Translations under genes and position numbers: made by a program
Notes under the pieces: model-generated
The model's database searches: none
What the model saw: only the letters and a program-made list of their open reading frames with translations
Told to the model about the DNA's origin: nothing
From: Acidobacteriota bacterium
GTDB taxonomy: Bacteria > Acidobacteriota > UBA890 > WLXD01
Direction of reading: 5' to 3'
DNA: 64,000 nt
Assembly: GCA_965248845.1 (NCBI GenBank)
Contig: CBDFKO010000002.1
Location: 968,063-1,032,062 of the forward strand
In this document: positions 15,814 through 42,804 of the stretch, piece by piece
Position numbering within the stretch: the first letter of the stretch is position 1
How the letters are laid out: each line of letters begins with the position of its first letter

Positions 15814-16050
15814 TGATGTCGTTCTGGCCGGTGCTGGCACCGTCTTGCTCCTCTGGACAAAAAAAAGCGGGCACGAGGGCCCACTTCGCTCGCAGTACCC
15901 GAATTGCCGCAAACTCTACCAAGAACTCCGGTCCGCTTCAACGAGCCCGAGCTAGCAGGCCGTGGTAATTCTCTGACGGCGTTTGCGTCGCCGTACAGCT
16001 TCATTCAAGATCGCGGTCCGCCCCACAACCTGCCTCCTGCCGGAGTGCCT

Positions 16051-17223: not shown

Positions 17224-17305
17224 CAACCGGGCGGATTGCCGGGGCCATTGCCGGGGTCCTATCATGGAGCCACGTTCCGTCCGCCAACTATCACGCGAGA
17301 TTCAG

Positions 17306-17518
17306 ATGTTCGGCTCCATCGGTGGCCCTGAGCTGGTCCTGATCCTGGTTATCATCCTCCTCGTGTTCGGCCCCAAGCGCCTCCCCGAGTTCGGCCGCAC
17401 GATCGGCAAGGGGCTGGCTGAGTTCAAGCGAGCTTCCAGCGATCTGAGGCGCTCGCTCGAGGACGAGGTCCGCGTCGACGAGCCACGGCGCGACATCGGA
17501 CCGCGCGACGACAGTTGA
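17306..17518 (+). CDS. tatA: Sec-independent protein translocase TatA
   Basis: MFGSIGGPELVLILVIILLVFGPKRLPE is the canonical TatA N-terminus. Confidence 0.85.
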   Translation: MFGSIGGPELVLILVIILLVFGPKRLPEFGRTIGKGLAEFKRASSDLRRSLEDEVRVDEPRRDIGPRDDS

Positions 17519-17522
17519 CGCG

Positions 17523-18302
17523 GTGAGCACGGCCGAGCCTCCGGGCCTGCCGGAGACAGCTTCGGCTGCCGGCCGGCGAGAGAGTCTGCCCGAGATGTCC
17601 CTCATGGATCATCTCACCGAGCTGCGCGGGCGTTTGCTGGTCTCCGTGATCGCCGTCGTGCTCGGCGCCATCGGCGCCTGGTTCTACGCCGACGAGCTGT
17701 ACCGGCTGCTGACCCGACCCGTCGTGGAAATCTTGCCGGAACAGGACAATCGGCTGGCGTTCCTGTCGTTGACCGAGCCCTTCGTCCTCTACCTCAAGGT
17801 GGCCGGCCTGGCTGGGCTGTTCGCGGCCTCACCGGTCGTCATCTACCAGGGTTGGATGTTCGTGGCCCCCGGTCTGTACCGAAACGAGAAGCAGCACGCT
17901 TTGCCCGTCGTAGCTGCCTCCGCCGCGTGCTTTTTCGCCGGCGGCGCTTTCGGTTACTTCGTGCTGTTCCCGGTGATGGCCAACTTCTTCCTCGATCTCG
18001 GCTCCGACTTTCGCCAGGTTCTTACCGTGAACCGTCTCTTCGGCTTCCTCGTGCGAACGCTGCTGGGGTGCGCCCTCGTGTTCGAATGGCCCATCGTGGT
18101 CTTCTTTCTGGCACGCCTGGGGATCCTGACGGCCGGGGCAATGTGGAGCGGTCTCGGCTACGCCATCGTCGCGATCTTCGTCATTGCCGCCGTGGTCACG
18201 CCCACCCCCGACGCGCCCACACAGATTATCCTGGCCACGCCGATGCTATTGCTGTACTTGCTCGGTATCGGGATCGCCTGGTTGGTGCAGCCGCGCGACT
18301 AG
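17523..18302 (+). CDS. tatC: Sec-independent protein translocase TatC
   Basis: Six-TM TatC fold with the HLTELRGRL motif. Start is either GTG 17523 or ATG 17595; stop TAG lies inside the CTAG at 18299-18302. Confidence 0.9.
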   Translation: MSTAEPPGLPETASAAGRRESLPEMSLMDHLTELRGRLLVSVIAVVLGAIGAWFYADELYRLLTRPVVEILPEQDNRLAFLSLTEPFVLYLKVAGLAGLFAASPVVIYQGWMFVAPGLYRNEKQHALPVVAASAACFFAGGAFGYFVLFPVMANFFLDLGSDFRQVLTVNRLFGFLVRTLLGCALVFEWPIVVFFLARLGILTAGAMWSGLGYAIVAIFVIAAVVTPTPDAPTQIILATPMLLLYLLGIGIAWLVQPRD

Positions 18303-21776: not shown

Positions 21777-24700
21777 GGACACACTCGCTGCCGACGAGCG
21801 CCTCCAGCTCCTGCACCAGGCTGGCCGTGGGATCGACGAAGAGGTACCGGTTCGGCGAGATGCTCGCTCGGAAGCCCTCGGGGTGAGCACGGACCAGGCT
21901 GACCCGAACGGGGATATTGCCGCGGTGCCGCTGCAGCACGTCCACAAGGCGAACCGGAAGCTCCGGGGCCGCCGTCGTCAGGTCGACGGCGATCTCGACG
22001 GTCTGCGGCGGCCGCTCCTTCTTCTGCTTCTCAGCCTGATCGAAAGGCAGAATCTCGCTGGCGACCATCCGAGCAGTATCGTCCTCGGCCTCGGCGCGAC
22101 CACGGAACAACAGTACGTCATCGGGCACGAGCAGCTCCCTGCAGGCTTCGAACACCTTCGGAAACACGACGACCTCGGCGTGACCGAACAAATCCTCGAT
22201 TACCAGCACGGCCATCGGGTCGCCCTTACGCGTCTTCAGGTTGCGGACCGACACGATCAAGCCGCCGACCGCGACCTCGGTGGGCTCCCTGGCGCTCGCC
22301 AGATCGGCGGTCGTCGTGTCGGCCAGGTGACGAAGCTTGTCCGCGTGCCGCTGCAAGGGATGACCGGTCACGTAGAAGCCCAGGGCCTCCTTCTCGGCGT
22401 TGAGGACCTGCCGGTCCGACCAGGCATCGCAGTCGGGAAGGCGCGGCATGGGCTGCGGCTCCGAGTCGTCGGCGCCGCCGCTCGCCATCGCGTCAAAGAG
22501 CCCGCCCTGCCCGGACCTGCGATCGCGCTGCAGCCGCTGCCCGCTTTCCATCGCCGGCTCCAGCTGCGCCATCAGGACGGCCCGCACGGTCCCGGCCGGC
22601 AGGTCGCCATAGGGGGACAGCAGCCCGTCCATGGCGCCCGATTTGATCAGGCTCTCGAGCGTCTTCTTGTTGATGCCGCGCGCCAGATCGACGCGCTCAC
22701 AAAAGTCGAGCAGATGCTGAAAGCGCCCCTCGGCGTTGCGCGTGTCGAGAACCGTCAGCACGGCCCCCTCGCCCACCCCCTTGATCGCGGCCAAGCCGAA
22801 GCGGATCGCCTCGCCTACCGGGGTGAAGTGTATGTTCGACTGGTTGACCGTCGGGGGTAGCACGTCGATGCCGATACCGCGGCACTCGTTGATGTACCGG
22901 ACCACCTTGTCGGTGTTGCTCTGCTCGGTGGTCAGCAGGGCCGCCATGAAGTGCACCGAGTAGTTCGCCTTCAGATAGCCGGTTTGGTAGGCGAGCAGCG
23001 CATAGGCCGCAGAGTGTGACTTGTTGAAGCCGTAGCCCGCGAACTCGACGATCTGGTCCCAGATCTGCTTCGACGGGGCCTTGGGCATCGAGTTCGCCCT
23101 GCAGCCGCCCAGGAACTGCTCCTCCATCGCGGCCATGACCTCGGGCTTCTTCTTGCCCATGGCCTGGCGCAGCACGTCGGCCTGACCCAACGAAAAGCCG
23201 GCCAGTGCCGAGGCGATCTGCATGGCCTGCTCCTGGTACACGATGATGCCGTAGGTCTCTCGAAGCATCGGCTCCAGCTCAGGGAGCACGAACTGCACGC
23301 GGGTCGGGTCGTGCTTGCGCTGGATGTACTCGTCGATCATGCCGGAGCCGATCGGTCCCGGACGATACAGGGCGTTCATCGCGATCAGGTCGTTGATACG
23401 ACTGGGGTTGAGCTTGCGCAGGTAATCACGCATCCCGGACGACTCGAACTGGAAGATCCCGGAAGTGCCGGCGGCGGCGAACAGAGCATAGGTCTGGTCA
23501 TCGTCCAGCGGGATGTCGCCGGTACCGAACGGTTCTCCGTGCTCACGCGAGATCGAAGCCAGGCAGTCGTGTACTAGCGTCAGCGTACGCAGCCCGAGGA
23601 AGTCCATCTTCAGCAGACCGATTGCCTCGACGTCGTTCATCGGGTACTGGGTCGCCACGAAGTGATCCTGGTCGGCCCCCTGGCCTGACGCGGGCTTGTA
23701 GAGCGGCACATACTCCGTAAGCGGCTCGTCGGAGATCACGATGCCGGCCGCATGAGTCGATGCATGCCGGAGCTGCCCCTCGACCTGCTCGGCCAGATCG
23801 ACAAGCCTGGCCACTTGCTCGTCGTCGCTCACCGCCGCCTTGAGCGGATCCTCGGTCTGGAGCGCCCCGCGGATTGTCGCGCCGAGGTCACTCGGGATCA
23901 TCTTGGCAATGCGGTCGACATCGCCGAACGGCATCTCCAGCGTACGGCCCACGTCGCGGATCGCCGCCTTCGCGGCCATGGTGCCGAACGTGATGATGTG
24001 AGCCACCTTGTCGCGCCCATACTTGTTGGCGACGTACTCGATGACCTCTCCGCGCCGCCGCATGCAGAAGTCGATATCGATATCCGGCATGCTGATGCGC
24101 TCGGGATTCAGGAAACGCTCGAATACGAGCCCGTACTCGAGCGGGTCGATGTCGGTGATGCCGAGCGAGTAGGCGACCAGGCTGCCGGCTGCGCTGCCAC
24201 GCCCCGGCCCAACGGGGATCGTTTGCTCGCGGGCGAAGCGGATGAAGTCCCAGACGATCAGGAAGTAGCCCGGGAACCCCATCTGCTCGATCACCGAGAT
24301 CTCGTAGTCCAGTCGCTGTTCGTACTCGGTGCGCGACACGGCGCCGCGCCAACCGTTGCCTTGCCCCAGCGCCCTCATGCGCTCCTCGAAGCCGGCCCGG
24401 ACGACGCGCTCGAAGTAGCCGCCCAGCTCGAAGCCCTTCGGTACAGGGAAGTGCGGCAAGTGGTGGCTATCAAAGTCGAGCTCGACGTCGCAGCGCTCCG
24501 CGATCTCCTCGGTGCTGGTCAACGCTTGGGGCACCTCGGCGAAGACCTGGCCCATCTCCTCCTGGCTCTTTACGTAGAACTCGTCGTTCGGGAACTTGAG
24601 CCGGTTGGGATCATTGATGCCCTTGCCCGTTTGGATGCACAGGAGTACGTCGTGCCCCTGGCTGTCTTCCCGCCGCAGGTAATGGCAGTCGTTCGTACCG

Positions 24701-25326
24701 ACCAGGCGGAGGCCAAACTCCTGCGCCAGGCGCACGAGGTGCGGGTTGATCCTCCGCTGCTCCGCGAGCCCCTGGTCCTGCAGCTCGACGTAGTAGTCGT
24801 GGCGGCCGAAGATCTCGACCATTTGGCCGACGAGAGTGCGCGCCGCAGCGTAGTCGCCGTTCATCAAGACCTGGCTGACTTCGCTCGCCAAGCAGCTGGT
24901 GGTTCCGATCAACCCATCGGCATGCGCGGCCAGCGCCTCCCGATCGATGCGCGGCCGGTGGTAGAAGCCCTCCAGATACCCGATGCTGGAGAGCCGCATC
25001 AGGTTGCGGTAGCCGCGGGCATTCTTGGCCAACAGGAGTTGGTGAAAGTTGTGCTTGCCTGCGTAGCCCGCGGTGCGCCCTGTCCGCGAGCCGGGAGCCA
25101 TATAGGCCTCCATGCCCAGAATGGGTTTGATGTCGCGGGCCTTGGCGCTCTGGTAGAACTGGATCGCGCCGAACATGTTGCCGTGGTCGGTCAGGGCCAC
25201 GGAGTGCATGCCGAGCTCGGAGCAGCGGGCCATGAGCTGATCGATCCGGGTGGCCCCGTCGAGCAGCGAAAAGTTCGTGTGGTTGTGGAGGTGGACGAAC
25301 CCGGAATGCGCGCCGTTCGAGCTCAT
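21763..25326 (-). CDS. dnaE: DNA polymerase III subunit alpha
   Basis: 1187 aa with PHP domain, polymerase core, HhH and OB-fold regions. Confidence 0.95.
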   Translation of the reverse strand: MSSNGAHSGFVHLHNHTNFSLLDGATRIDQLMARCSELGMHSVALTDHGNMFGAIQFYQSAKARDIKPILGMEAYMAPGSRTGRTAGYAGKHNFHQLLLAKNARGYRNLMRLSSIGYLEGFYHRPRIDREALAAHADGLIGTTSCLASEVSQVLMNGDYAAARTLVGQMVEIFGRHDYYVELQDQGLAEQRRINPHLVRLAQEFGLRLVGTNDCHYLRREDSQGHDVLLCIQTGKGINDPNRLKFPNDEFYVKSQEEMGQVFAEVPQALTSTEEIAERCDVELDFDSHHLPHFPVPKGFELGGYFERVVRAGFEERMRALGQGNGWRGAVSRTEYEQRLDYEISVIEQMGFPGYFLIVWDFIRFAREQTIPVGPGRGSAAGSLVAYSLGITDIDPLEYGLVFERFLNPERISMPDIDIDFCMRRRGEVIEYVANKYGRDKVAHIITFGTMAAKAAIRDVGRTLEMPFGDVDRIAKMIPSDLGATIRGALQTEDPLKAAVSDDEQVARLVDLAEQVEGQLRHASTHAAGIVISDEPLTEYVPLYKPASGQGADQDHFVATQYPMNDVEAIGLLKMDFLGLRTLTLVHDCLASISREHGEPFGTGDIPLDDDQTYALFAAAGTSGIFQFESSGMRDYLRKLNPSRINDLIAMNALYRPGPIGSGMIDEYIQRKHDPTRVQFVLPELEPMLRETYGIIVYQEQAMQIASALAGFSLGQADVLRQAMGKKKPEVMAAMEEQFLGGCRANSMPKAPSKQIWDQIVEFAGYGFNKSHSAAYALLAYQTGYLKANYSVHFMAALLTTEQSNTDKVVRYINECRGIGIDVLPPTVNQSNIHFTPVGEAIRFGLAAIKGVGEGAVLTVLDTRNAEGRFQHLLDFCERVDLARGINKKTLESLIKSGAMDGLLSPYGDLPAGTVRAVLMAQLEPAMESGQRLQRDRRSGQGGLFDAMASGGADDSEPQPMPRLPDCDAWSDRQVLNAEKEALGFYVTGHPLQRHADKLRHLADTTTADLASAREPTEVAVGGLIVSVRNLKTRKGDPMAVLVIEDLFGHAEVVVFPKVFEACRELLVPDDVLLFRGRAEAEDDTARMVASEILPFDQAEKQKKERPPQTVEIAVDLTTAAPELPVRLVDVLQRHRGNIPVRVSLVRAHPEGFRASISPNRYLFVDPTASLVQELEALVGSECVRLRV

Positions 25327-25506
25327 GCGGCGACTATAGCAGGCCGTGCTGAGGCGCTGATGCGCCTCGGCTGCCCGGCCGGGACTCAGCTGCAGACGAA
25401 TCGCTCACAACGTACATTTTCCTCTCTGGTGCGAATCCGAAACGACCCGTCACGACCCCGGCCACCCGCATTACTCGAGCGGGCGGGCCGAATTGCGGGC
25501 GGCGCC

Positions 25507-25935
25507 ATGGCGGCCGTCGCCGTCCTGAGCTGCGTGAGCCTGGCGCGCCCCGTAGCCCCCACGACGTACGCCGGCCCGCTACCGGCGCCGGTCACTGGCC
25601 GGCAGACCGGCGCCGAGGCTACGCCCGAGGCAACCGACGGGCCTCTCTACCTCGCGGCGCCCCGGTTCGAGTGGATCGACGGAACGGCCGGCAGCTACCG
25701 CTGGTCGGCGACGCTACGCAACCCGAGCCACACCGACATGGGGGTCACGGTGGTGCTGCAGATCCTCGATGCGGTAGGAACAACGTTGCACCACGAAGAC
25801 CTGTCCCGCATGCTGCGGGGCGGGCGCGCCTGGGATCTGGAGTCGGCAGGCCAGGTTCCCGGAGAGCGCCTCGCCGAGGCCCGGAGCTGGCAGATCGAGT
25901 ACTGGGTGCGGATCTCGCCGCCGCCGCACCGCTGA
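25507..25935 (+). CDS. Hypothetical small lipoprotein / secreted protein
   Basis: MAAVAVLSC with a lipobox-like VLSC; codes outside the dnaE antisense region. A longer start at GTG 25429 would add an Arg-rich n-region. Confidence 0.4.
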   Translation: MAAVAVLSCVSLARPVAPTTYAGPLPAPVTGRQTGAEATPEATDGPLYLAAPRFEWIDGTAGSYRWSATLRNPSHTDMGVTVVLQILDAVGTTLHHEDLSRMLRGGRAWDLESAGQVPGERLAEARSWQIEYWVRISPPPHR

Positions 25936-25954
25936 TCCGGGGCCGACCAGCGGG

Positions 25955-28078
25955 CTACTTCAGGCTCCGCTCGAACAGTCGGAGGATGCGGCGGTACTCG
26001 TCGGCCCACGAGGCGGCCTCGACGAAGCCATGGCTCTCGACCGGATACAGCGCCACCTCCCAGTCCTCCTTGCGCAGCTCGATCAACCGTTGCGCCAAAC
26101 GCACCACTCCCTGGAAGTGGACGTTCGTGTCGACGACCCCGTGGCAGATGAGCAGCGGGTCCTCCAGGCCCTCGGCGAAGTAGATCGGCGAGGAGCGCCA
26201 GTAGGACTCCGCGTCGTCCTGAGGCGAGTTCAAGATGTTGCTGGTGTACGGGTGGTTGTAGTGGGCCCAGTCGGTAACCGGGCGTAGGGCCGCCCCCGCC
26301 GCGAAGTGATCGGCGGCGGTGAACAACGCCATGAGCGTGATGAATCCGCCGTAGGAGCCGCCGTAAATGCCGATGCGGTCGGGATCGACCCCGTGCTGGT
26401 CCACCAGGTACCGGGCCCCGTCGATCTGATCTTCCAGGTCCTGACCGCCCATGTGCCGATAGATCGCGGTCCGCCAGGCTCTGCCGTAGCCGGCAGAGCC
26501 TCGGTAGTCGATATCGAGCACGGTGTAGCCACGCTCCATCAGCAGATGGTGGAACGTGAACTCGCGCGAGTACGAGGACCACCACCGATGCACGTTGTGC
26601 AGGTATCCGGCGCCGTGCACGAAGATCACGGCAGGACGATCCGGATGAGGGTTCTCCGGAAGGTACAGACGGGCCGGAACCTCGACACCGTCACGTGCCG
26701 TGATGTGCACGATCTCGGGGTCGATCCAGACGTAGGACTCGAACGCCGGACTCGGCGAGCTGGTGACGCGCGTCTCCTCGGCGTCGGCCGCAGCGTCTCG
26801 CACGTACAGCTCCGACGGCCGGTTCGACGAGGAGGCTACGCTCGCCAGCCGACTCCCGTCCGGCGACAGCGTCGAGTCGTGACGTCCGTGCCCGGAGGTC
26901 AGGGCGATGGGCTCGCCGCCGCCGATCGGCAGGCGATAGGTGTGGACCTCGAACGGATCGACAATCGAGGCCTCGAACACGAAGCTCTCCCTATCGGCGG
27001 AGAGCCGGGGGCCGAAGACCTCGAAGTTGCCGGCCGTCAGGGCCCGCGCCTCGCCGCCGGCAGCAGGCGCGACATACAGATGCATGCTCCCGGCGCGCTC
27101 CGAGACGAAGTAGAGAGCGTCACCCGTCGGCATCCAGCCGTAGCCACCGGCGACGCTCCAGTTGATCCAGGCCTCGTCGTGGTCATGCGCCGCAAGGACC
27201 GCCTCGGCGCGAAGCTCCTCACCGTCGCTCGCCGGCGTGATCACGGTGAACCAGCGGTCCTTGCTGTCGGTAGCGCGCGCGTGCACCAGGAAGGAGCTCG
27301 ACTCCTCGTTCCACACGGGCCCCGAGAAGGCGACGTCCCGATCGTCGAGCGCCGGTTCGGCCCACGCTATGCGCCCGGTTGCCACCTCGATCACCCCTAC
27401 CGTCGAATCGCCGAGCTCGTCGCCCACCTTGATCCGGGTCGAGATGTCCTCGGTATACCCGCTGGTCGTCACGTAGTTGGGCACGTCGGCAACTCGATCC
27501 GAGCCCGCCTCGCGGCTTGCCGTGATCGCCACCCAGCGCAGATCGGGCGATACGACGAGCGCGCCGGCCGTGAGCCCCTGCAGCCAGACCGGAGCGGGCT
27601 GGAGTCGCTCCGACCGTTCACGCGCCTCCTCGCGTCGCTGCGCGCGGCGGCTCAGCGCGTCGAATAGTGCGAGTTGCTGATCACGCAACCACCGCTGACT
27701 GTCGGTAGAAGGCTCGGTGTCCGACTCCTTCCCCGGACGGATGTCGGTGAGGCGTCGCAGCACCGACACTCCGCCAGCGGCGTCGATCGGCAGGGCCAAC
27801 AGATTGTCGCGATAGCGAACGACCGCCACACGGCCGCCGTCGGCCAGCGCCTGCGGTCGGGCCCCGTCGAGCCCGGAGATCAAAGTCCGTGTCTCGCCGC
27901 CCTCGAGCAGCATGACCGTGTCGCGAGCGGCCCACAGCGCACGTCGGTGATGCCGATCCCAGACCGCGAAGGCGGCCGGCACCAGCTCGGCCTCGTCGTC
28001 CGAAAGGCGCCGCAGCGCGCCCGCGTCGACGTCGTACTCCCACGTGCCTGTGCGCTCTTGCCCCAACGCTTCCACCAC
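25955..28078 (-). CDS. S9-family serine peptidase (prolyl oligopeptidase/DPP-IV family; propeller plus alpha/beta hydrolase), main frame
   Basis: C-terminal catalytic domain with the GGSYGG serine motif and conserved Asp/His; N-terminal beta-propeller region. Confidence 0.85.
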   Translation of the reverse strand: MVEALGQERTGTWEYDVDAGALRRLSDDEAELVPAAFAVWDRHHRRALWAARDTVMLLEGGETRTLISGLDGARPQALADGGRVAVVRYRDNLLALPIDAAGGVSVLRRLTDIRPGKESDTEPSTDSQRWLRDQQLALFDALSRRAQRREEARERSERLQPAPVWLQGLTAGALVVSPDLRWVAITASREAGSDRVADVPNYVTTSGYTEDISTRIKVGDELGDSTVGVIEVATGRIAWAEPALDDRDVAFSGPVWNEESSSFLVHARATDSKDRWFTVITPASDGEELRAEAVLAAHDHDEAWINWSVAGGYGWMPTGDALYFVSERAGSMHLYVAPAAGGEARALTAGNFEVFGPRLSADRESFVFEASIVDPFEVHTYRLPIGGGEPIALTSGHGRHDSTLSPDGSRLASVASSSNRPSELYVRDAAADAEETRVTSSPSPAFESYVWIDPEIVHITARDGVEVPARLYLPENPHPDRPAVIFVHGAGYLHNVHRWWSSYSREFTFHHLLMERGYTVLDIDYRGSAGYGRAWRTAIYRHMGGQDLEDQIDGARYLVDQHGVDPDRIGIYGGSYGGFITLMALFTAADHFAAGAALRPVTDWAHYNHPYTSNILNSPQDDAESYWRSSPIYFAEGLEDPLLICHGVVDTNVHFQGVVRLAQRLIELRKEDWEVALYPVESHGFVEAASWADEYRRILRLFERSLK

Positions 28079-28341
28079 TGGAACCAGAGCCGGTCACCGT
28101 CGGGGTGCCACCGAACCGACGACGGGCGCGAGCCGCTGAAGTCGGCGCCCTCCATGATCAGGTCCATGTCGAGCCCGGAAACCGACCCCGCGAGCCGCTG
28201 GTGGATCCCCGCATCGATCGCCCGCACCGGCTCCAGCTCGTCCTCCGCTACCGGCGGGTTGTCCTCCTGCGCTACGGCGGGCGGCACAGGTACCAGGAGC
28301 AGGAGCAGGGCAACGGGGGCGATGGTGCGCGCGAGCGGCAT
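28071..28341 (-). other. Signal peptide and first propeller segment of the S9 peptidase, in a different reading frame (apparent 1-nt frameshift near 28075)
   Basis: MPLARTIAPVALLLLLVPVPPAVAQ...SSVRWHPDGDRLWFQWW is in a +1 frame relative to the main ORF that begins VVEALGQERTGTWEYD. Confidence 0.5.
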
Positions 28342-28384
28342 GAGGGTCTCCCAGGAGGCCGTGGTGAAAGTGCGATGGGTCTGG

Positions 28385-30859
28385 CTACATGAGCGTACGG
28401 GGATCGATGTCGACGACCAGGTCGCGGGGCAACCCACGACCGGCTTCGAGCTCGGCGAGCGAGCTCCGAATGGTACCGACCAGATCATCACGATCCGGAC
28501 TCTTCAGGAGGATTTGCATGCGGTACTTGCCGCGTAACCGGGAGATCGGGGGCGACGCTGGACCGATGACCGCTACCTCGCCGACAACGTTGCGCCGCAG
28601 CGCCGCACCCAGTCGATCGGCCTGTTCCTTGACGTCGGTGGTTACCTTGGCGCGGCATAAACATGCGGCCAGACAGACGAAGGGCGGGTACCTCAGGCGA
28701 CGCCGGAACTCGATCTCACGCGCGTAGAAGGTCTCGAAGTCGTGCTCGAGCGCGGCCTCGATGGCGTAGTGCCCGGGCTGGTGAGCCTGCAGGACCACCT
28801 CGCCGGGCGTGTCTCCCCGCCCGGCGCGTCCAGCCATTTGGGTGAGCAGCTGAAAGGTCCGCTCGGCAGCGCGAAAGTCGGGCATCCCGAGCCCAGCGTC
28901 GGCGCCCACCACGCCGACCAGCGTGACCCCGGGGAAGTCGTGTCCCTTGGCGAGCATCTGGGTGCCGACCAAGACGTCGAGCTGGCGCGAGCCGAAGGCC
29001 GATAGAATCCGCGCGTGCGCTCCCTTCTGGCGTGTCTGATCGGCGTCGAACCTTCCGATTCGAGCCGCTGGGAATGCCTGGGCCAGGGCACCCTGCAACT
29101 GCTCGGTCCCGTGACCCAGCTCGTGTAGCGAATCGGCCCCACACTGCGGGCAGAGACTGACCGCCGGGCGCCGGTAGTCGCAGTAGTGACAGCGCAGGGA
29201 ACGCTCCGCCCGATGCAGCGTCAGGCTGACAGCACATTCGGGACACTCCGGCCGCGCACCGCAGACACGGCAGACCAAGGCGCTAGCATAGCCACGGCGG
29301 TTCAGCAGAATGAGCGCCTGCTCGCCATCGACCAACCGGGCCTCGATCCGTTTCTCGAGGGCGCGGGACACCAGGGTACGACCGCACTCCTTCCACTCGC
29401 GGCGCATGTCGACGAGCGCCACGCTCGGCATCGGGCGCGCCGCAACCCGCCTCGGAAGCAGAGCCGTTCTAAAGCGCCCGGCGCGGGCGCGCCAGGCAGT
29501 GCCCAGTGCGGGCGTCGCCGATCCAAGAACGACCACGGCCCCCTCGCACTCCCCGCGGATCAACGCCACGTCGCGGCCGTGGTAGCGGGGGCGTTCCTCC
29601 TGCTTGTAGGCCGCATCCTGCTCTTCGTCGACGACGACCAGACCGACGTCTGCGAGCGGCGCGAACAGCGCCGAGCGTGGGCCGACCACGACGCGTGCCT
29701 CGCCCCGGCGTAACCGCCACCAGGCGTTGGTCCGTTCGCTGGCCGACAATCCCGAATGTAGAACGGCCACCTGGCTGCCGAAGACCGCCTGCGCCCGCCC
29801 ACGCAGCTGCGGTGTCAGGCCGATCTCCGGAACCAGCAGGATCGCCGAACACCCGGCCTCCAGTGCGGTCCGGGCGGCGCGAAGATAGACCTCGGTCTTG
29901 CCGCTTCCCGTCACCCCGTGGAGCAGCACCGGCACTCGATCGCGTCTGGCCCGGTCGATGTCCCGCAGGGCGGCGCTCTGATCGCGTGTCAGCATGAACG
30001 TGCCTGCCCCGGCAGAGCCGAGGCTCCAGCCGTCGCTTCGGTCCACCGCCCGCTCGAGACGCTCGACCAGGCCCTTGGCTTCGAGCGACCGCAACACGGC
30101 GGCCGACACGCCCGCTTCGCGCATGAGCAGCATCGAGTCCACCTCGCGCTCACCGTGCGCCCGCAGCCACGCCACAGCGCGACGCTGCGCCGGAGCGTGC
30201 CGGGTCGCCTGCCCCTGCGTCGCTTCGTCGAGCCCTGCGGTCAGCCGGATCTCGGTCGCAGTCCGACCGCTGGCCTGGCCGCTCCACTCATCGCGCACCT
30301 CCAGGAGCCCGTCTGCGGCCAGGCGCTGGACCGTCGCCATCGGCGCCACGCCCGGCAGCATGCGGGCAATCTGGCTGACCCGGGTCCAGCGGGAGCCATG
30401 GCGAAGCCCGGCGAGCGCCTGCATGAACCGCCGGGGATCGTGCCCCGCAATGTGCGTCGGTGCGGTGCCAGCCAGGCGTACCCGGGCGCTCTGCTCGGGG
30501 TTGCCGGCGGGCAGCGCGAGCTGCGCCACCACGCCCCAGGATGCCATGTAGCGTTCCGACACCCGGCGCGTCAGATCGAGCATGGCGGAGGTCAGCAGCG
30601 GACGGCGGTCCAGGCAATCGTCGATGTCCCGCAGCCGATCGGCCGACACCTCTGGGGGCGGAGCCTCTACCGTCTCGACCACGAGCGCCACGAGCGAACG
30701 CCCCCCGAAACGCACCCGCACCCTGGCACCCGGGGCAACGAGCCACTCGTGCTGCGGCGGGACCCGGTAGCTGTATAGCCCTTCCGCCGGCACAGGAACC
30801 GCGACGCGGGCGAACAGCCGCCCGACCTCGGGTAGTAGCAGCGCCTGCCGGCCGCTCAC
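28385..30859 (-). CDS. priA: Primosomal protein N' (replication restart helicase PriA)
   Basis: Walker A (LLHGVTGSGKTEVYL), DEEQD box, Cys4 zinc-binding region, and the conserved N-terminal ARVAVPVP...RVRVRFGGRS. Start uncertain (GTG about 30859). Confidence 0.85.
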   Translation of the reverse strand: MSGRQALLLPEVGRLFARVAVPVPAEGLYSYRVPPQHEWLVAPGARVRVRFGGRSLVALVVETVEAPPPEVSADRLRDIDDCLDRRPLLTSAMLDLTRRVSERYMASWGVVAQLALPAGNPEQSARVRLAGTAPTHIAGHDPRRFMQALAGLRHGSRWTRVSQIARMLPGVAPMATVQRLAADGLLEVRDEWSGQASGRTATEIRLTAGLDEATQGQATRHAPAQRRAVAWLRAHGEREVDSMLLMREAGVSAAVLRSLEAKGLVERLERAVDRSDGWSLGSAGAGTFMLTRDQSAALRDIDRARRDRVPVLLHGVTGSGKTEVYLRAARTALEAGCSAILLVPEIGLTPQLRGRAQAVFGSQVAVLHSGLSASERTNAWWRLRRGEARVVVGPRSALFAPLADVGLVVVDEEQDAAYKQEERPRYHGRDVALIRGECEGAVVVLGSATPALGTAWRARAGRFRTALLPRRVAARPMPSVALVDMRREWKECGRTLVSRALEKRIEARLVDGEQALILLNRRGYASALVCRVCGARPECPECAVSLTLHRAERSLRCHYCDYRRPAVSLCPQCGADSLHELGHGTEQLQGALAQAFPAARIGRFDADQTRQKGAHARILSAFGSRQLDVLVGTQMLAKGHDFPGVTLVGVVGADAGLGMPDFRAAERTFQLLTQMAGRAGRGDTPGEVVLQAHQPGHYAIEAALEHDFETFYAREIEFRRRLRYPPFVCLAACLCRAKVTTDVKEQADRLGAALRRNVVGEVAVIGPASPPISRLRGKYRMQILLKSPDRDDLVGTIRSSLAELEAGRGLPRDLVVDIDPRTLM

Positions 30860-35430: not shown

Positions 35431-37245
35431 TCAGCCCTCCAACGCGAACCCTGGCTCCACCGCGGCGGCGAAGTGCAGCGCGTACAGACGCTGGTACGCA
35501 CCCATGCGCGACAGCAACTGCTCGTGGGTCCCCTGCTCGACGACACGGCCGCCCTCGATCACGACGATCAGGTCGACGTTGCGGATCGTCGACAGACGGT
35601 GCGCGATGATGACGGTCGTACGTCCTTCCATCAGATTGACCAACGCCTCCTGCACCAGGCGGTCGGAGCGTACGTCGAGGTTGCTCGTCGCCTCGTCCAG
35701 GATCAGGATCGGCGCGTTCTTGAGCAGCGCGCGGGCGATCGCGATGCGCTGACGCTGCCCCCCCGACAGGCGCAGCCCGCGCTCGCCCAGCACGGTTTCG
35801 TAGCCCTGTGGCAACTTGCTGATGAATTCGTGCGCGAAGGCCGCGCGGGCGGCCGACTCGACCGCTTCAGCAGAAACATTCGGCTGGCAATAGCCGATAT
35901 TAGCGCGCACCGAATCATTGAACAGGATGGTTTCCTGGGTGACCATGGCGATCTGCGCGCGCAGCTCGTCGAGACGGATGCCCTTCAGATCTACATCGTC
36001 GATCGCTACGCGGCCCGAGCTCGGCTCGTAGAAGCGCGGAATCAGGTTGGCCAGCGTCGATTTGCCGGACCCGGAGGGACCGACGAACGCAACCGCGGAG
36101 CCGGCCCGAATCTCCAGATCGATATCGTGCAGCACTTGCTCGCCGCCGCCGTCGGCGTACTCGAAAGCGACGGACTCGAAGCGCAAACCATGAACAAGAG
36201 CCGGCATCGGGACCGTCGGCTCGAACCCGGCGACAGGTTCTGAAAGCGAACCGCCGATCAACCGCAAACGATCGGCCGCCGGCAATGGTTCGACCGGCTC
36301 GTCGAGCACCTCGAACAGACGATCTGCTGCCGATGCCGCGGCCTGCACCCGCACGTTCGCCGAGCTGAGGCGCCGCAGCGGCGCGTAGGTCAGCAGGGCC
36401 GATGCGAGAAACGAGGTGAGCTCACCCGGCGTCAGTTGCGCCTGCGCGATCTGCCACGACCCGTAGATCACCACCAGCGCGCCGCCGCACGCGCCGATGA
36501 ACTCCATCAAAGGCGAGCCGATCGCGGACAGGCGCTCGGCGTGCAATGAATGCCGGTACAGCCGCTCGGCCGCGCGCCGGAACTTCTCCGACTCCGGCTG
36601 CTCCATGCCGAACGCCTTCACCACGCGGATCCCGGTAAGCGTCTCCTGCAGCAGTGCCGAGATCTCGCCAAGCCCCTGCTGTGCGGCGCGGCTGACCCGG
36701 CGTAGACGCTTACCGAGCGCGCCGATGACGGTCGCCACGACCGGTCCGACGGTGAGCACCAGGAGCGCCAAGACCCAGTCGGTGTAGAGCATCAGCGCGA
36801 TCAATCCGACCAGCGTCATGCTCTCGCGCAGCAGATCGACGAAGACTCGCGTCAGCGCCTCCTGGATGGCCAGCACGTCGGAGGTAACCCGTGACATCAA
36901 GCTGCCGGTGGAGCGTCGCGCGTGAAACCCGAGAGGCAGGAACTGCAGGTGCCGGTAGACGTGGACGCGCAGATCACGAACGACCGCGAAGCCGACGCTG
37001 CCCATGAGGTAGCTCGACAGGTAGCGCGCGATTCCCAGCGTCAAGTACAGCAGCACGATGGCCGCGGCGAGCATGCGGACATCGGTAGCGACGGCGCTCG
37101 TAACAAAGGCCTCGTCGACTACGAAGCGCAGCATGTAGATGATCGCCGCGTTCGCCGTCGCCAGGGCGGCCATGGCGGCGATCGCACCCAGCATCCTGGA
37201 CACGTAGGGCCGAACGAAGGGGCTGAGGCGGCGGAGATTGGTCAT
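35431..37245 (-). CDS. ABC transporter permease/ATPase, MsbA-like lipid A exporter
   Basis: Six-TM domain plus NBD with Walker A GPSGSGKST, signature LSGGQRQR and Walker B ILILDEATS. Confidence 0.85.
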   Translation of the reverse strand: MTNLRRLSPFVRPYVSRMLGAIAAMAALATANAAIIYMLRFVVDEAFVTSAVATDVRMLAAAIVLLYLTLGIARYLSSYLMGSVGFAVVRDLRVHVYRHLQFLPLGFHARRSTGSLMSRVTSDVLAIQEALTRVFVDLLRESMTLVGLIALMLYTDWVLALLVLTVGPVVATVIGALGKRLRRVSRAAQQGLGEISALLQETLTGIRVVKAFGMEQPESEKFRRAAERLYRHSLHAERLSAIGSPLMEFIGACGGALVVIYGSWQIAQAQLTPGELTSFLASALLTYAPLRRLSSANVRVQAAASAADRLFEVLDEPVEPLPAADRLRLIGGSLSEPVAGFEPTVPMPALVHGLRFESVAFEYADGGGEQVLHDIDLEIRAGSAVAFVGPSGSGKSTLANLIPRFYEPSSGRVAIDDVDLKGIRLDELRAQIAMVTQETILFNDSVRANIGYCQPNVSAEAVESAARAAFAHEFISKLPQGYETVLGERGLRLSGGQRQRIAIARALLKNAPILILDEATSNLDVRSDRLVQEALVNLMEGRTTVIIAHRLSTIRNVDLIVVIEGGRVVEQGTHEQLLSRMGAYQRLYALHFAAAVEPGFALEG

Positions 37246-41707: not shown

Positions 41708-42804
41708 GTTCCGGCAAGCCGCTGCGGATCGCCGTCGACGCTCGTGAGCTCGAGGGTCGCCCCACGGGGGTCGGCCGTGTAGTCGCCGGCCTCCTGGCGT
41801 CCTGGCCCAGAACCGACGACCGAATCGAGCTAATCTGTCGCTCCGCCATCCGCCCCCCCTGGCTGCGCGAGGGATGGGCCGTGCGCACGGCAAGCGGCGC
41901 CCCCCGACTCCCGGGGGCCCTGTGGGAGCAGACGGTATTGCCAATGGCGCTTGGCGACGCGGAGGTCCTAGTTGCGCCCAACTACGGTATGCCGCGGTTC
42001 GCCCCAATCCCGACAGCCGTGTGTATGCACGACTGCGCTCCGTTCGCCTTACCTGAGACGTTCGCCGCTCGAGAGCGGGCCCGCCGACGCTGGTCGGCGC
42101 GCGTTGCTGCCCGCCGAGCCGCAGTGATCTTCATGGGCTCGGAGTTCGCCGCGCGTGAATGCCATCGGTGGCTCGGCGTTTCGGACCAGCGGCTCCTCGT
42201 TATCCCGTGGGGATGCACGCCGGAGTTCCGGCCCGCTTCCCGCGAGCGGGTGGCGACGGTGCGTTCACGCTACCGACTGCGCGACCGCGTCGTGCTGTTC
42301 GTCGGCTCGCAGCTGCAGCGGCGGGACATCGATGCCCTCGGCCGTCACGTAGCACAGCTACGGGCCGGTCGCGATGACCTGGAGCTATGCATCGTCGGCG
42401 GCAATCCGGAGGCCGCCGAGCACACCGATCAAGACCGGCACGTACGACGACTGGGCTATGTTCCCGACGAGGACCTCCCTGCCCTCTACAGCGCCGCTAC
42501 GGTGGTGGCCTACCCGTCGCGCTACGAAGGGTTCGGCCTACCGGTGCTCGAGGCCCTGGCATGCGGAACGCCCGTCGTGGCCTCGGCTACCAGTGCACTC
42601 CTCGACGTCTTCTCCGGCCGGGCGCGGCTCGTGGACCACGACGACGACGTGGCCTGGCTCGAAGCGCTGGCTCGCCTGCTCGACAGTCAGGAGGTCCGCG
42701 ACCAGGAGATCGCACGGGGTCACGGCTGGGCCGTCGGTCGTGACTGGGACGCGAGCGCCGCCCGTCTGCGAGCCCGACTCGCTGACATCGGATCGACGCC
42801 ATGA
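41704..42804 (+). CDS. Glycosyltransferase family 4
   Basis: The EGFGLPVLEALACGTPVV motif; start overlaps the upstream stop (ATGA). Confidence 0.85.
   Translation: MSSGKPLRIAVDARELEGRPTGVGRVVAGLLASWPRTDDRIELICRSAIRPPWLREGWAVRTASGAPRLPGALWEQTVLPMALGDAEVLVAPNYGMPRFAPIPTAVCMHDCAPFALPETFAARERARRRWSARVAARRAAVIFMGSEFAARECHRWLGVSDQRLLVIPWGCTPEFRPASRERVATVRSRYRLRDRVVLFVGSQLQRRDIDALGRHVAQLRAGRDDLELCIVGGNPEAAEHTDQDRHVRRLGYVPDEDLPALYSAATVVAYPSRYEGFGLPVLEALACGTPVVASATSALLDVFSGRARLVDHDDDVAWLEALARLLDSQEVRDQEIARGHGWAVGRDWDASAARLRARLADIGSTP

Follow-up and report, generated by a model that had tools for sequence, protein, structure and literature searches.

A predicted exported S9 peptidase gene split between two reading frames at a single missing base in an Acidobacteriota contig

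The window considered here is a stretch of 64,000 nucleotides (nt) from an Acidobacteriota bacterium (positions 968,063 to 1,032,062 of contig CBDFKO010000002.1, assembly GCA_965248845.1), and the element under study is an S9 peptidase gene on its minus strand, at positions 25955–28341. This region is one gene lying in two reading frames, not two genes. A signal-peptide-like leader and the start of a predicted β-propeller are encoded in one frame, while the remainder of the enzyme is encoded in the adjacent frame, and alignment to orthologues places the missing base in a Gly codon (GGN) within a GGGG run at 28064–28061. What is seen is a frameshift of the routine, single-base type, affecting an ordinary conserved gene for an exported S9 peptidase; its kind is already known, and no new biology is suggested. 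The base was lost either by mutation or through an error in the consensus. On balance, we lean toward a genuine and very recent slipped-strand deletion, i.e., a young pseudogene that is possibly polymorphic in the population.

The two frames are readily distinguished. Frame A opens at ATG 28341 and, in the list of open reading frames (ORFs) and in a three-frame translation, reads MPLARTIAPVALLLLLVPVPPAVAQ...VRWHPDGDRLWFQWWKRWG before turning into nonsense. Its leader and early residues, MPLARTIAPVALLLLLVPVPPAVAQEDNPP...SSVRWHPDGDRLWFQWWKRWG, are followed by low-complexity nonsense past the junction. A Shine-Dalgarno-like GGGAG, read from the sequence at 28348–28352, is found 6 nt upstream of the ATG and 43 nt past the priA stop. 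The first 25 codons (28267–28341) translate into a signal-peptide-like N-terminus, MPLARTIAPVALLLLLVPVPPAVA, followed by Gln. In it, a positively charged n-region leads into a 16-residue hydrophobic core, and an A-V-A motif stands ahead of the Gln, before which the leader is probably cleaved; the orthologues in the alignment likewise begin with hydrophobic leaders. On the basis of the profile, tblastn, and the structural model described below, the upstream segment in frame A (28061–28341) harbors residues 1–93 and the GG of Gly94. The out-of-frame tail, 59 codons and a TGA, occupies 27880–28060 (ORF 27880–28491, translation), such that the product as written has 153 amino acids (aa), of which 94 are native and 59 out of frame.

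Frame B contains a TGA at 28094–28096 and thus cannot reach any N-terminus farther upstream. It then opens into a 707-aa ORF (25955–28078) that runs from GTG 28078 to the stop at 25957–25955. Homology in this ORF begins only at a Gln codon, CAA 28060–28058, and the six codons ahead of it (VVEALG) represent the upstream segment read in the other frame. The downstream segment (25955–28060) is assigned by the profile, Pfam, and tblastn to residues 95–795 and the stop, encoding the propeller remainder and an α/β-hydrolase domain; its 701 homologous residues sit in the −1 frame relative to frame A. Codon-position GC content follows the same course, with the low-GC second position tracking frame A above ~28100 and frame B below ~28070. 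A promoter and terminator scan of 25300–28700 found nothing, and no RNA family in Rfam is matched anywhere in the 64 kb.

This layout bears out the first-pass annotation of the region, made from the letters alone, which had assigned a signal peptide and a propeller start to a different frame from the 707-aa remainder; both of the peptides it quoted are present where it placed them. Its remark that the downstream ORF alone would lack an export signal also holds, in that no signal-peptide-like segment is present other than the one ahead of the break. It further had the upstream frame dying at about 28075. The change of frame is real, but the position is not: homology in frame A continues to 28061, ~15 nt farther downstream, and the first stop is the TGA at 27882–27880.

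That the two segments belong to one gene is established by comparison with intact homologues. The repaired protein, i.e., the 795-codon translation obtained after one base is added to the GGGG run, was queried against a collection of 5.8 billion proteins and retrieves full-length homologues of ~800–860 aa that are 54–63% identical; nothing in the collection comes nearer than 63–66%. Their annotations name only S9, prolyl-oligopeptidase-family, or dipeptidyl-aminopeptidase proteins. A hidden Markov model built from the 17 closest orthologues alone was run against the three minus-strand frames. Its positions 29–100 match frame A (E = 2.5e-27) and its positions 101–811 match frame B with 1202 bits, the Gly of frame A being position 100 and the Gln of frame B being position 101, with zero columns lost or repeated. 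Because no profile column is missing or duplicated, the lesion corresponds to the loss of exactly one nucleotide. The same hand-off is seen by tblastn with the closest orthologue, P0002 (839 aa, locus L081, 63–65% identical), of which residues 32–101 match 28269–28057 and residues 104–839 match in the adjacent frame with 64.5% identity (frames −2 and −1). Agreement of this kind lies far outside what chance would give. The earlier claims of a single S9 peptidase gene and of a 1-nt indel are both sustained by these comparisons, which specify the indel as the deletion of one base that every orthologue has. The gene shows no further stop or shift.

The position of the lesion can be read codon by codon. 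All aligned homologues (24, later 38) cross the junction in one frame with the pattern ...VRWDGDGSRLWF-x-WKRWDE-EETGTFEY.... At this site, the DNA of L081 reads through as TGG GAC GAG CCG GAA AGC GGA ACC TGG, while that of the window reads TGG GG- CAA GAG CGC ACA GGC ACG TGG, and a further homologue, P0004, displays a matching “WKRWGE” spacing. The profile, the L081 DNA, and the P0004 spacing thus converge on the GGGG run (CCCC on the plus strand), which is read TGG GG- CAA, and the repaired peptide spanning the break is WKRWGQERTGTWEYDVDAGALR.

A second, smaller length difference is found next to the run. The window carries one extra Trp codon (TGG-TGG, 28072–28077), giving “FQWWKRW” as opposed to the “FQ-WKRW” of all aligned homologues (24, later 38), as seen both in the homologue alignment and in the DNA comparison with L081. 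The additional codon is in frame and separate from the frameshift. Lying 8 nt upstream of the G run, in the same loop or strand end, it is another length change that resembles slippage, and it could be either an old lineage-specific loop insertion or a sign of a locally unreliable consensus. A net +2 insertion in place of the −1 deletion was considered and ruled out, as the extra TGG forms a complete codon in frame and the Gly and Gln at profile positions 100 and 101 directly follow one another.

The product is predicted to be an exported S9 peptidase of ~800 aa that has a DPP-IV-like propeller followed by a C-terminal α/β-hydrolase domain; its activity is likewise a prediction. Peptidase_S9 (PF00326) matches residues 600–794 of the repaired protein with 165 bits against a cutoff of 22.6, and does likewise in the 707-aa ORF alone. 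The Pfam DPPIV_N domain is matched with 58–63 bits, and a PD40 repeat match is also present. The catalytic residues Ser663, Asp738, and His771 are intact: G661-G662-S663-Y664-G665-G666, D738, and H771 are invariant across a 39-sequence alignment, and the corresponding codons are TCC at 26354–26356 (in GGSYGG), GAC at 26129–26131 (in HGVVDTNV), and CAT at 26030–26032 (in VESHGF). Ser comes first, then Asp and His, and the nucleophile sits in a GxSxGG elbow, as is characteristic of S9 peptidases. Among the NCBIfam equivalogs of named S9 enzymes (Dpp5, oligopeptidase B, and the lasso-peptide isopeptidase), the best hits reach 77, 67, and 28 bits, where 400, 900, and 1313 would be required. As no equivalog is matched at its cutoff, the classification goes no further than an S9, DPP-IV-like peptidase.

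The repaired protein was modeled with AlphaFold2 from the 39-sequence alignment, which gave a mean predicted local distance difference test score (pLDDT) of 86 and a predicted template modeling score of 0.84. Residues 1–25, the leader, are poorly ordered with low pLDDT. The upstream segment is modeled with confidence (pLDDT 92–95) as helices 37–51, 59–62, and 66–69 and strands 74–78 and 84–90. These two strands, which precede the break, adjoin strands 99–104 and 109–112, which follow it (pLDDT 92–96), such that the break falls in the loop between strands 84–90 and 99–104 of a single four-stranded blade. In the model, therefore, the frameshift halves the first blade of the propeller. The fold is all-β over residues 74–560, as expected for the propeller that gates the active site of an S9 peptidase.

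Bacterial DPP IV is the closest structurally characterized counterpart. A sequence search of solved structures ranks 5yp1 (Pseudoxanthomonas mexicana) and 2ecf (Stenotrophomonas maltophilia), both MEROPS S9B, as best (E = 7e-52, within a range of 1e-52 to 1e-49), and Foldseek superposes the whole model on 5yp1 and 2ecf with template modeling scores of 0.72/0.80 over ~775 columns at ~23% identity. A weak N-terminal alignment to a DPP IV structure covers the junction (query residues 55–130). With DPP IV, DPP8/9, and prolyl tripeptidyl peptidase as its closest solved relatives, the protein is related to the S9B group. It shares with bacterial DPP IV the Ser-Asp-His order and the propeller–hydrolase architecture; in contrast to DPP IV, the family of the window protein is modeled with a long helical hairpin (residues 214–247), and the identity between the two is only ~23%. 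A conserved SGYTED (T292, S294, and E298) is what we take to be a candidate, and only that, for the double-Glu feature (YEEE motif) in the propeller of DPP IV, an Xaa-Pro dipeptidyl peptidase that anchors the free N-terminus of its substrate there; the sequence alignment with 5yp1 does not span the part of the propeller that holds this motif.

The genomic context also identifies the gene. L081 resides on a 5.76-Mb metagenomic contig in the order yicC-gmk-rpoZ-coaBC-UDG-priA-S9-guaA-dnaE-hypothetical gene-accA-recJ, with a tight priA–S9 arrangement like that of the window. By tblastn, the window keeps this order and orientation minus guaA, with identities of 44–70%, and the S9 gene, at 64.5%, falls mid-range among the identities of the neighboring genes to L081. 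On the basis of the shared gene order and the mid-range identity, the window gene is the positional orthologue and has diverged no faster than its neighbors. The orthologues P0002, P0001, and P0014, all from Acidobacteriota-type metagenome-assembled genomes, are among homologues 54–66% identical to the window copy along their whole length and resemble it in the leader–propeller–α/β-hydrolase order. However, they are single uninterrupted ORFs, whereas the window copy is one base short and has one extra Trp. The family to which the window peptidase belongs is conserved across Acidobacteriota-like and Bacteroidota genomes.

The extent to which the rest of the window is affected was assessed by a frameshift survey of the 64 kb, in which a composition filter (GC at third and second codon positions) and a codon-usage frame map were followed by Pfam and ORF inspection. 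No other frameshift was found among the ~55 genes of the window. About 20 overlapping or abutting same-strand ORF pairs were flagged, every one of which proved to be distinct, complete genes, including pyrH/tsf, nrnA-like/rbfA, DUF503/infB, nusA/rimP, recJ/accA, gmk/yicC, msbA/lpxB, gcvPA/PB/H/T, tatA/tatC, and glycosyltransferases. The remaining frame switches in the codon-usage map fall at gene boundaries. Counted by length, the G/C runs of the window number 315 (4 nt), 77 (5 nt), 12 (6 nt), and 2 (7 nt); a G7 run is in frame within the LSGGQ motif of an ABC transporter. The two 7-nt runs, at 35758–35764 and 41853–41859, lie inside intact genes and are handy controls for homopolymer accuracy, the former encoding the Gly-Gly of the LSGGQ signature of an MsbA-like ABC transporter.

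Several of these results speak for a real deletion, which we regard as somewhat more likely than not. The identity of the S9 gene to its orthologue, 64.5%, lies inside the 56–70% range of neighboring genes, and because the rest of the gene is free of lesions and no more diverged than its neighbors, the lesion, if real, must be recent. The sole lesion falls in a dispensable accessory gene, while dnaE, priA, infB, nusA, accA, and lpxB are intact, and one lesion per 64 kb is in keeping with how often young pseudogenes occur in free-living bacteria. Under this explanation, translation from ATG 28341 would yield a 153-aa product in which the signal peptide is followed by 69 native mature residues and then by 59 residues of nonsense, ending at 27882–27880. 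The catalytic domain would then be absent or made only from a weak internal start, and as an internally started product would have neither the signal peptide nor half of the first blade, the secreted enzyme would be lost; the truncated products are presumably inactive. Recent loss of one secreted peptidase would amount to a small and ordinary case of gene decay. The competing explanation, to which we assign a substantial chance that nevertheless falls short of even, is that the organism has GGGGG and an intact 795-codon ORF, that the enzyme is made and exported, and that one base was lost in base-calling, polishing, or assembly, in which case the missing base would be present in the organism's DNA. 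One-base undercalls of G/C homopolymers are the signature error of nanopore-type and other long-read assemblies and fragment gene calls (PMC9262707). A number of observations accordingly weigh against a real deletion: a change from G5 to G4 is a classic long-read consensus error of this type; a gene that is otherwise perfect, with an intact triad and neighbor-like divergence, is what such an error predicts; a long-read metagenome-assembled genome of low coverage could contain about one indel per 64 kb; and the contig of the closest relative is a long-read-style metagenome assembly, indicating that the lineage is recovered by such methods. The extra TGG, 8 nt from the G run, could hint at a locally poor consensus. 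Moreover, the best relative for comparing the site is only 63–65% identical, and two degenerate DNA patterns of the junction had no match in Joint Genome Institute metagenomes. Related searches were no closer: a scan of GTDB-representative contigs gave, among the matches listed, only relatives of at most 49% identity, and protein records held no exact matches to the DnaE or 707-aa ORF products. In opposition to an error, no other frameshift is present in the ~55 genes despite 91 G/C runs of at least 5 nt, including those of 6–7 nt, whereas error-prone assemblies usually carry several frameshifts; a 5-nt run is, furthermore, rarely miscalled by short-read or HiFi consensus, for which a single lesion would be unusual. 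The first-pass annotation had likewise named recent inactivation and assembly error as the two candidates, and both readings are kept.

Two further explanations would make the split arrangement functional, and neither is given much credence. According to the one, ATG 28341 starts a small secreted protein, and GTG 28078 starts a cytoplasmic 707-aa peptidase encoded by a second gene. Both ORFs do exist mechanically, and the 707-aa ORF by itself still scores as Peptidase_S9 and DPPIV_N, but in every orthologue the counterpart of the upstream 94 residues is the N-terminus of this very protein, and the 707-aa ORF opens with six codons that read this N-terminal homology in the wrong frame. GTG 28078 is not preceded by a Shine-Dalgarno-like sequence, and the 153-aa product matches no Pfam family. 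With the break predicted to fall within a single β-sheet blade, the 707-aa ORF alone would have neither an export signal nor part of its fold; the gap-free profile hand-off and the bisected blade exclude two independent genes, and we see almost no prospect of this explanation being correct. According to the other, programmed −1 frameshifting, transcriptional slippage, or phase variation at the G run gives the full-length enzyme at a regulated level. The geometry would permit it: if tRNA-Gly slipped by −1 at “G GGC”, from GGC to GGG, the protein would be restored, with WKRWGQERTGTW as its trans-frame peptide. However, an X XXY YYZ slippery heptamer is absent, the site being U UGG GGC A in the incoming frame, and so is an upstream Shine-Dalgarno-like stimulator. 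The 99 nt downstream fold with −49.9 kcal/mol as compared to a shuffle mean of −46.6 (z = −0.92), with 32 of 200 shuffles as stable or more so. The split is not conserved either, all aligned homologues being in a single frame (none closer than ~65% identity). Transcriptional slippage and phase variation are known from runs of about 7–9 nt or more, and the far shorter 4-nt run counts against them. Recoding in any of these forms is, overall, very unlikely, and the specific proposal that the run is a non-canonical switch, either by −1 slippage of tRNA-Gly at G GGC at a low level or by reversible slipped-strand changes between G4 and G5 within the population, is more doubtful still. Were it true, the organism would be tuning or switching its output of a secreted DPP-IV-like peptidase, which would not simply be lost.

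Single-lesion frameshifted pseudogenes and the homopolymer indel errors known from annotation pipelines show the same one-base split into two adjacent-frame ORFs, and nothing sets the window case apart from a generic example of either. In practical terms, the annotation should merge both ORFs into one frameshifted S9 peptidase gene rather than list a small hypothetical protein followed by a leaderless peptidase. The site also offers a convenient single-position check of the consensus quality of the assembly.

Downstream of the gene, the window differs from L081, which carries guaA between S9 and dnaE; the window has no guaA there, and tblastn finds no match to it anywhere in the 64 kb. In its place is a 628-nt spacer (25327–25954) with a possible small convergent ORF on the plus strand (~25435–25935). 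The start of this ORF, MAAVAVLSCVSLA, looks signal-like; its coding score is weak, and it matches no Pfam family. A 727-aa open frame on the plus strand (23752–25935) is largely an artefact of high GC that shadows dnaE in antisense. It extends past dnaE only in its last ~150 codons, which overlap the possible small ORF.

Two other features of the window were recorded. The three-frame stretch at 17.2–18.3 kb, considered as a frame switch, consists instead of two separate genes. These are adjacent tatA/E-like (MFGSIGGPELVLILVIILLVFGPKRLPE...) and tatC-like genes on the plus strand (17274–18302), named from their ORF translations. On the minus strand, a terminator-like hairpin is followed by T8 at 15859–15887, the sole 8-nt run in this 67% GC window. 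It is positioned ~20 nt upstream of the likely rimP start, GTG 15840, which is preceded by GAGGAG. The hairpin and T8, which have no match in Rfam, may act as a leader attenuator of the rimP-nusA-infB operon.

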